Part shown: positions 23,165 through 23,778 of the stretch, in pieces
Layout of the letters: every line of letters starts with the position of its first letter
How positions within the stretch are numbered: the first letter of the stretch is position 1
Assembly (NCBI GenBank): GCA_900553125.1
Contig: USCB01000003.1
Coordinates: 17,808 to 81,807 of the forward strand
Origin: an uncultured Clostridium sp.
GTDB lineage: Bacteria > Bacillota > Clostridia > TANB77 > CAG-508
Length of the DNA: 64,000 bases
Direction of reading: 5' to 3'
The notes under the pieces: generated by a model
Told to the model about the DNA's origin: nothing
The model's database searches: none
Seen by the model: only the letters and a program-made list of their open reading frames with translations
Translations under genes and position numbers: made by a program

Positions 23165-23192
23165 TTGAAATGTTGGAAAAATTTGGTATAAT
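23165..23192 (+). promoter_or_regulatory. SigA-type promoter (TTGAAA-16-TGgTATAAT) driving the noncoding region
   Basis: -35 at 23165..23170, -10 at 23187..23192. Confidence 0.5.
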
Positions 23193-23198
23193 ATTATG

Positions 23199-23778
23199 CG
23201 ATGGTGCATTATTCTAGTCGTACTTTTTATTGTGAGGGTGGGGCTAAAAATCCACTAAAGGGCATATAAATTAGGGCTTCTTGTTTGTGCGCGAAATGCC
23301 AGTTTTGTGTGTGAGTAGGAAGAAAGAGGTAAGGGAATGATGTAATGGCATATATCAGCCCCCCTTGTTTCGCTGAAACTTAAATTCAAATTTAAGTAAA
23401 ACCTATGGTGAGTGCCAAGACACGAAATACATAGAGTAGCCTGTCTTGAGTGAATGTATTGGGATTATTTTATCATTTATGAAATTGCATTTGCAAAAGA
23501 GACTAGCAATAAACAAAAGTATGTCAAGGAAAACTTCTAGAATGTTTGCCAGAATTAACAGGCAAGGAAACTTAAGGATTAAGGTACGGATTTAAGTGGC
23601 GATCTGGTGTCTAATAAGATTAGATGTTCTCTTTAAACGGAAACGGCTATGTAGTAATATATAGTAGAGAATAGAGAAATTCAACCAGACCTAAACCGTA
23701 AAATTTACTTGAGTTTTTACCATCTATAAACTTTAAAATCTTGGAAATAGAAAAAATTCTATTTTCATTTTTTTTATT
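23199..23778 (+). ncRNA. Large structured noncoding RNA candidate, OLE (ornate large extremophilic) RNA-like
   Basis: About 580 nt with no ORF. Local GC is clearly above background, with several internal hairpins (acttaaat/atttaagt, caagaca/tgtcttg). It is bounded by a promoter and a terminator hairpin (ggaaatagaa/ttctattttc + T-run), and a small four-TM DxxxD protein gene lies immediately downstream. Confidence 0.5.

Follow-up and report, generated by a model that had tools for sequence, protein, structure and literature searches.

An ole-oapA locus with a naturally reduced OLE RNA in an uncultured Clostridium

A 64,000-nt stretch of DNA from an uncultured Clostridium sp. (GenBank assembly GCA_900553125.1, contig USCB01000003.1, positions 17,808 to 81,807; the whole stretch is called the window below, and positions count from its first letter) contains an interval of 815 bp with no sizeable gene, and the locus raises the question of what this interval encodes. 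An earlier note, made from the letters alone, proposed a structured noncoding RNA of about 0.58 kb resembling OLE RNA, with its own promoter and terminator and with the gene of the OLE partner protein OapA immediately downstream. Every element described there is present where it was placed. The analysis points to an ole-oapA locus with a promoter at P1, the first helix of the RNA, a two-domain OLE RNA in a naturally reduced copy, a probably leaky terminator and an OapA partner, a reading to which we give a probability of about 96%. Among bacterial RNAs that still lack a known biochemical function, OLE is one of the largest, and a recent proposal describes it as a membrane-spanning RNA dimer. 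The interval is bounded as follows.

22334-23005: tmk-like open reading frame (ORF), followed by the 815-bp gap
23821-24366, plus strand: oapA, encoding a 181-aa membrane protein, a homologue of OLE-associated protein A

The interval is indeed devoid of sizeable ORFs, as had been claimed. None exceeds 49 aa on either strand, the longest being a 49-aa ORF with a TTG start on the plus strand and one of 44 aa on the minus strand. The base composition also stands out, with a G+C content of 0.35-0.39 over roughly 23200-23700 compared with 0.19-0.27 in the flanks on either side. The G-rich and C-rich runs that the earlier note had pointed to fall at helices of the RNA: gagggtggggc (23235-23245) lies at the 5' strand of P4, and cagcccccc (23357-23365) begins just ahead of the 3' strand of P6 and extends into it.

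The identity of the RNA was decided by a scan of the whole window with Rfam 15 at gathering thresholds, which was the check named in the earlier note. OLE (RF01071) matches positions 23185-23739 of the plus strand with 299.3 bits against a threshold of 50 (E = 3.7e-84). The match spans model positions 1-616 and is not truncated, with 555 nt in the window for a consensus of 616 nt; its first ~15 nt overlap the -10 box of the promoter described below and are flank, not RNA. When the consensus pairs of RF01071 are projected on the window, 124 of 134 are standard, 4 are deleted and 6 are non-standard, and all six of the latter are located in P8 or distal P9. The window is identical to the consensus at 189 of the 243 strongly conserved (upper-case) positions (78%), and the differences at conserved positions are mostly G/C to A/U, which a genome of ~28% G+C would lead one to expect.

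Relatives of the locus were collected through the downstream protein, for which the protein collection contains over 6,500 homologues. Identity reaches 88-90% at most, so the exact species is not in that collection. An alignment of oapA homologues, run against genomes taken at one per species, gave 80 loci. All of them come from metagenome-assembled genomes (MAGs), mostly from the gut by their isolate names, with titles such as Clostridia, Clostridium (for example CAG:793 and UMGS1994), Clostridiales, Oscillospiraceae and Lachnospiraceae. OLE is mostly described from anaerobic or extremophilic Bacillota. This clade of relatives may be the GTDB order TANB77, as it fits the description of a reduced OLE variant considered below; the literature search found no statement of lineage. 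With the window OLE as an nhmmer query, 79 of the 80 loci show an OLE homologue immediately 5' of their oapA homologue, and the single locus with no match has just 198 nt of upstream sequence. Full-length copies, the window included, gave an alignment of 75 sequences in which 130 columns are invariant.

Covariation in this alignment, also among the checks proposed earlier, strongly follows the OLE structure. The structure counted was the Rfam projection together with P1, P2, P3 and P3.1. Standard pairs fill 94.6% of the pair cells, compared with 39-48% when the partners are slid by 1-3 columns, and 106 of the 146 pairs have changed on both sides in a compensatory manner, compared with 40-54 after sliding; because the structure was derived partly from one of the 75 sequences, the percentage paired is favoured and the compensatory count is the less biased of the two. 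None of 500 shuffles reached any of the observed pairing measures. RNAalifold, run on the 75 sequences with no Rfam input, gives 131 pairs, with compensatory changes in 93, and it recovers P1, P2, P3 and P3.1, which are unpaired in the Rfam model and are included in the current literature model of OLE (PMC12265935). OLE RNAs fold into some 20-25 helices and have strongly conserved nucleotides at roughly one position in four; the gene-free stretch is a real member of this family.

The RNA has a predicted structured core of ~525 nt and would measure ~577 nt up to the T-run of the terminator. Helices P3 to P9 constitute domain 1 of the two-domain OLE architecture, and P1, P2 and P10 to P15 constitute domain 2. 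The parts of the window copy are:

23200-23724, plus strand: OLE structured core, from RNAalifold on the 75 sequences and pair counts
23200-23205 and 23719-23724, plus strand: P1 (GAUGGU/ACCAUC), which closes the core
23213-23217 and 23537-23541, plus strand: P2 (UCUAG/CUAGA)
23219-23233 and 23506-23523, plus strand: P3 plus P3.1, ~11-12 bp in total
23237-23503, plus strand: domain 1 from P4 to P9
Within domain 1: P4, with its A-rich loop L4 GCUAAAAA retained
Within domain 1: P5/5.1, with loop L5.1 (UGCCAG) retained and complementary to L6.1
Within domain 1: P6/6.1, with loop L6.1 (AAUGGCAU) retained and complementary to L5.1
23379-23396, plus strand: P7, a short hairpin of 8 bp with a UCAA loop
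23403-23434, plus strand: P8, present
23443-23503, plus strand: P9, truncated to 61 nt, with neither the distal P9.3 stem nor its palindromic kissing loop
23526-23718, plus strand: domain 2 from P10 to P15
23566-23576 and 23708-23718, plus strand: P12
23603-23608 and 23684-23689, plus strand: P12.2, retained, as are all of P10 to P12.2
23609-23625, plus strand: P13 (GUCUAAU-AAG-AUUAGAU), a 7-bp stem without mismatches, capped by an AAG triloop
23654-23657, plus strand: GUAA tetraloop of P14/P14.1, kept
23674-23682, plus strand: P15, retained

Compared with the full-length OLE RNAs of Halalkalibacterium halodurans, Clostridium acetobutylicum and C. botulinum, the window copy has the same helices from P1 to P15. 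It also matches them in the L4, L5.1 and L6.1 loops and the GNRA loop of P14.1, in an oapA gene immediately downstream, apparently in a Bacillota host, and in a P3 plus P3.1 of ~11-12 bp, a length that has been discussed in connection with a proposed membrane-spanning stem (PMC12265935). It differs from them in its helices as follows: P7 is cut to 8 bp, P9.3 and its loop L9.3 are missing, and P13 has neither the GNRA loop nor the bulge.

The P9 region of the window is 66 nt long, ends shortly past the conserved internal loop GGGAUUA...UAUGAAAU, and contains neither GGCC nor AGCU. The region is similarly short (62-69 nt) in 15 of the 75 sequences, the window included, and measures ~96-159 nt in the other 60, which end in a palindromic loop, either UUUGGCCAAA (GGCC; 55 sequences) or UAGCUA (AGCU; 5 sequences). 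In the dimer seen by cryo-electron microscopy (cryo-EM), the L9.3 loop forms the intermolecular bridge B3, and it is reported to covary between GGCC, GAUC and AGCU (PMC12286853). In a neighbour-joining tree of the OLE core, the copies lacking P9.3 fall into a group of 13 (the window and 12 relatives) and a separate pair (L020 and L045), which suggests that P9.3 was lost at least twice in the gut clade; the tree was built from the OLE RNA itself and carries no bootstrap support. Among the long forms, the five with UAGCUA in place of UGGCCA in the apical loop are L015, L030, L036, L038 and L077, and this exchange of one palindrome for another reproduces the published kissing-loop covariation of L9.3 (PMC12286853). 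Two others, L021 and L051, carry an extra ~40-55 nt in distal P9, with regions of 159 and 145 nt compared with ~103.

The second missing part is the docking site of OapB, for which P13 supplies a GNRA tetraloop together with one bulged nucleotide, and these dock on P12.2 (PMC7936274). The P13 of the window has neither the loop nor the bulge and therefore offers no OapB site. Inspection by eye revealed no GNRA-capped P13 in the 75 relatives, with L076 (GCAA) being ambiguous. Bridge B3 and OapB docking thus cannot occur in the reduced form in the way described for full-length OLE.

A further difference concerns two joining regions that both lie within the part of the RNA mapped as the OapC kink-turn. 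J4a/5 (23264-23277), which is usually …AUCGWUGAAG, reads …AUAAAUUAGGG or …UUGGG in the window and its three nearest relatives (L027, L029 and L033), a change of UGAAG to UAGGG or UUGGG. J6/7 (23371-23379), which is usually CGCGGAGGC, reads CGCYGAAAC in the same four sequences, a change of GGAGRC to YGAAAC. The two changes co-occur in these 4 of the 75 sequences.

Reduced OLE RNAs have been described before. In variant 1 of Fernando and Breaker 2024, P7, P8 and P9 are shorter and the nucleotides of the OapB site at the end of P13 are often missing, and the hosts are mostly members of the TANB77 gut clade with reduced genomes that largely lack OapB and OapC. The window copy fits this variant: it shares the short P7, the short P9, the missing OapB site and a low-G+C gut MAG host. 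P8, on the other hand, is shortened in variant 1 and not visibly so in the window (39 nt, the usual length among the 75). The operational class for variant 1 is a non-truncated Infernal match of 310-390 bits to the authors' own alignment, a different model from that of Rfam, so the 299.3 bits obtained here are not comparable with it and labelling by bit-score class was rejected. The window copy does not belong to variant 2, in which P7 and P8 are entirely absent (Fernando and Breaker 2024), since it has both. Four of the relatives (L013, L017, L060 and L064) lack most of P7 and P8, with 6-9 nt and 4-25 nt compared with ~22 and 39 nt elsewhere; they resemble variant 2 yet keep the GGCC loop in P9.

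Transcription of the RNA involves the following elements.

23165-23192, plus strand: sigma-70-type ole promoter, TTGAAA, 16-nt spacer, TGgTATAAT (extended -10), 11/12 match
23742-23778, plus strand: terminator hairpin, stem GGAAAUAGAAA/UUCUAUUUUC (23742-23767) with a loop of 4, then AUUUUUUUUAUU
23790-23795, plus strand: Shine-Dalgarno-like AGGAGG, 25 nt upstream of the oapA ATG

The promoter, which the earlier note had read in the same way, is real and conserved. It is among the two best promoter-like sites in a scan of 22900-25100. TATAAT is perfect in 67 of the 75 homologues. In 71 of the 75 the box stands 6-8 nt ahead of P1, and 69 have a -35 element with at least 4 of 6 matches at a spacing of 16-18 nt. 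With the conserved -10 box at this distance, the primary transcript should begin at or just before P1, which in the window would place the start at about 23198-23200, right at the beginning of P1. The ole gene of H. halodurans lies inside a long polycistronic RNA (PMC12265935); the window OLE differs from it in having its own promoter abutting P1.

The gene immediately downstream is the second part of the case. Its product contains, at residues 105-109, the DxxxD motif that the earlier note had noticed, as DVIGD within a CADVIGDxCG block that is invariant over 18 homologues. It has four hydrophobic segments (residues ~16-34, 47-65, 106-124 and 136-154) and a basic, lysine-rich loop (8 K/R among residues 70-100); it contains not a single proline, and an AlphaFold2 model predicts long helices at 9-36, 43-69, 86-130 and 134-161. 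Published OapA binds the abundant OLE RNA, is required to bring it to the membrane and has four transmembrane helices with positive charges clustered on one face. It is distantly related to the CNNM domain of the MpfA/CorB Mg2+ transporters, without the CNNM-type proline (PMC11332333). The CNNM family (PF01595) gives a sub-threshold match to the window protein (E = 0.22, 11.6 bits), and several homologues of 70-77% identity carry a precomputed PF01595 match. The window protein shares with published OapA the DxxxD motif, the four hydrophobic helices, the basic loop, the missing CNNM-type proline and a gene 3' of ole, a likeness of features and not of direct alignment with H. halodurans OapA. 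These shared features support its assignment as OapA.

Between AGGAGG and the ATG of oapA there is a small hairpin (23797-23813) of -2.7 kcal/mol that is not significant in the window; L033 has an equivalent hairpin with a different stem sequence (~5966-6006; -6.2 kcal/mol, z = -3.1). If the window hairpin forms, the effective Shine-Dalgarno spacing would be ~8 nt.

How the transcript ends bears on whether a discrete OLE RNA is made at all. One might instead regard OLE as the leading segment of a bicistronic transcript that continues through oapA; the hairpin at 23742-23767 would then be at most a leaky attenuator or a stabiliser of the 3' end after processing. This reading has nearly an even chance of being correct. 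No convincing promoter is found between OLE and oapA in the window, where the best site matches 9 of 12 positions, and the precedent of the polycistronic H. halodurans transcript argues in the same direction. The spacer between OLE and oapA varies from 0 to ~250 nt in the relatives, most of which lack a hairpin plus T-run. However, the window hairpin with its eight Ts has a folding energy of -10.6 kcal/mol (z = -3.1), matched by a single one of 200 shuffles; with under three G-C pairs in its stem, it escaped a consensus terminator scan. In addition, G+C-rich hairpins followed by T-runs occupy the equivalent place in L051, L066 and L080. The hairpin is probably a weak, leaky intrinsic terminator, and oapA is likely to be expressed by read-through from ole, given that the hairpin is A+U-rich and not conserved and that a convincing intervening promoter is missing. 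The bicistronic transcript and a discrete RNA are compatible, since partial termination would yield both. Of the discrete transcript of ~0.58 kb with its own promoter and terminator that had been proposed, the promoter therefore stands and the terminator stands as a folding hairpin with a T-run, but it is probably leaky, and read-through is likely. In five relatives (L001, L002 and L004, and also L025 and L037) a run of 6-9 Ts lies at, or a few nt past, the 3' strand of P1 (ACCAUC UUUUUUU), and the terminal helices of OLE may themselves act as the terminator stem in those relatives.

The remaining alternatives are much weaker. That the stretch encodes a different large RNA (ROOL, GOLLD, raiA, RNase P RNA or tmRNA) or a missed protein gene is next to impossible, and nothing was found in its favour: OLE alone is above threshold here among all 4227 Rfam families, the ORF list is empty above 49 aa, and substitutions follow base pairing, not codons. 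These candidates, several of them named for checking in the earlier note, are thereby refuted. It is also very improbable that the copy is a decaying, non-functional relic left after the loss of P9.3 and the OapB site. Such decay might account for the missing kissing loop of distal P9, the missing GNRA loop and bulge of P13, the difference from the consensus at 22% of the strongly conserved positions and the altered J4a/5 and J6/7. However, the reduced form is kept in 13 sequences (the window and 12 relatives) with compensatory changes throughout, the L4, L5.1, L6.1 and P14.1 loops are intact, few consensus pairs have become non-standard in the window, and the locus retains its promoter together with an intact and highly conserved oapA. 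Several points nevertheless weigh against an ole-oapA locus with a leaky terminator and an OapA partner. The ends of the transcript are predicted from the DNA itself, and the terminator has two G-C pairs, is otherwise A+U-rich and is not conserved in relatives. The oapA product matches nothing above threshold in Pfam and NCBIfam, and a PDB sequence search also returned nothing, so membership in OapA was judged by motifs, hydropathy, gene adjacency and a fold search. The structural model is of moderate confidence (predicted local distance difference test 67.8, predicted template modelling score 0.55), and the fold match found with Foldseek is weak: the archaeal CNNM protein MtCorB (entries 7m1t and 7m1u) takes the top three places among PDB matches with E values of 0.018-0.07 and a template modelling score of 0.42, followed by a next match with E = 1.4. 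The physiological role would be extrapolated from a distant Bacillales species with full-length OLE, OapB and OapC; the organism studied here may lack OapB and OapC, and the complex may therefore work somewhat differently. OapB, a KOW/SBB protein also named YbzG, and OapC, the L7Ae-family protein YbxF, were sought among nine small ORFs of the window, which proved to be HU, SpoIIID, Veg, a helix-turn-helix protein and unknowns, although a 64-kb window cannot show absence from the genome.

On the reading as an ole-oapA locus, the sigma-70-type promoter at 23165-23192 would start transcription within a few nt of P1, the weak terminator would release part of the transcripts, and the rest would run on into oapA. 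The later steps are drawn by homology from the H. halodurans system and from the Clostridium cryo-EM structures. The RNA would dimerise via its L4 and L5.1/L6.1 loops (bridges B1 and B2), P3/P3.1 and OapA would place it at or in the membrane, and the resulting particle might help the cell to tolerate excess Mg2+, cold, alcohols and poor carbon sources.

Published work already covers the OLE family, its OapA partner and the reduced variants found in gut Clostridia, and for genome annotation a Rfam match above threshold is a routine result. Three observations were not found stated in the literature: the loss of L9.3 in only part of the clade, apparently repeated; the promoter abutting P1 throughout the clade; and the joint change of J4a/5 and J6/7 in the window and its three nearest relatives. 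They are leads, not findings. Taken together they would describe the window and its 12 relatives as a natural minimal OLE without B3, without the OapB site and, in the window, L027, L029 and L033, without the usual J4a/5 and J6/7, with P9.3 lost at least two times and with a primary transcript made clade-wide from a dedicated promoter. This composite proposal is tentative and somewhat more apt to fail than to hold. If it is true, bridge B3 and OapB, and perhaps OapC as well, count as accessory; the core function would then reside in domain 1 (L4 and L5.1/L6.1), P3 and OapA. Natural reduced OLEs reveal which parts are dispensable. The window copy and its relatives keep P3/P3.1, L4, L5.1/L6.1 and OapA, and drop the P9 arch, the kissing loop and the OapB site. 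They are thus candidates for smaller structural or genetic constructs, and they hint that B3 and OapB are accessory. The conserved promoter at P1 predicts a defined 5' end, which would be useful in expression constructs.

The earlier note had placed the RNA between a tmk-like gene and topA, and this description needs some revision. The tmk-like gene is upstream, but topA is not adjacent to oapA, from which it is separated by an additional gene.

24493-24828: DUF6514 ORF, 111 aa (PF20124, E = 1.6e-11), between oapA and topA
24996-27065: topA, with a strong promoter-like site at 24933-24961

The DUF6514 ORF has its own promoter-like site and terminator-like sites. A DUF6514 gene lies downstream of oapA in 12 loci, and topA is next in 10 of the 12; in the other two (L027 and L047) the sequence ends soon after DUF6514. 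It is directly upstream of topA in the window and in all ten relatives whose fetched locus spans both genes, and its distance from oapA ranges from 0.1 kb (the window, L027, L033 and L061) to more than 5 kb. Because DUF6514 adjoins topA even where other genes part it from oapA, the gene travels with topA and not with ole, and DUF6514 as a clade-specific OLE partner was rejected on these grounds. Of the 80 loci, 15 have a tmk-like homologue of 77-85% identity on the upstream side of OLE, and one more (L065) has a short partial match at its edge. The tmk-like/topA context is thus a feature of part of the gut clade, not of OLE generally, and a search of one review found no mention of tmk or topA. 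The tmk-like protein matches Pfam Thymidylate_kin with 67 bits and has a weak deoxynucleoside kinase match as well; it falls far below the NCBIfam cut-offs for dTMP kinase (96 compared with 193, and 55 compared with 83), and the gene may be something other than the housekeeping tmk.

Elsewhere in the window are genes for SpoIIID (53308-53568, minus strand), Veg (54741-55040, plus strand), HU (12526-12801, plus strand) and a long-form ribosome hibernation factor (20290-20958, plus strand). SpoIIID suggests a spore-forming lineage, and the presence of OLE was reported to correlate with that of sporulation proteins (PMC11332333). Three tRNA genes, all on the minus strand, are located at 15241-15311, 36229-36308 and 37517-37589, and the 5' part of a 16S rRNA gene occupies 63608-64000, running off the end of the window.
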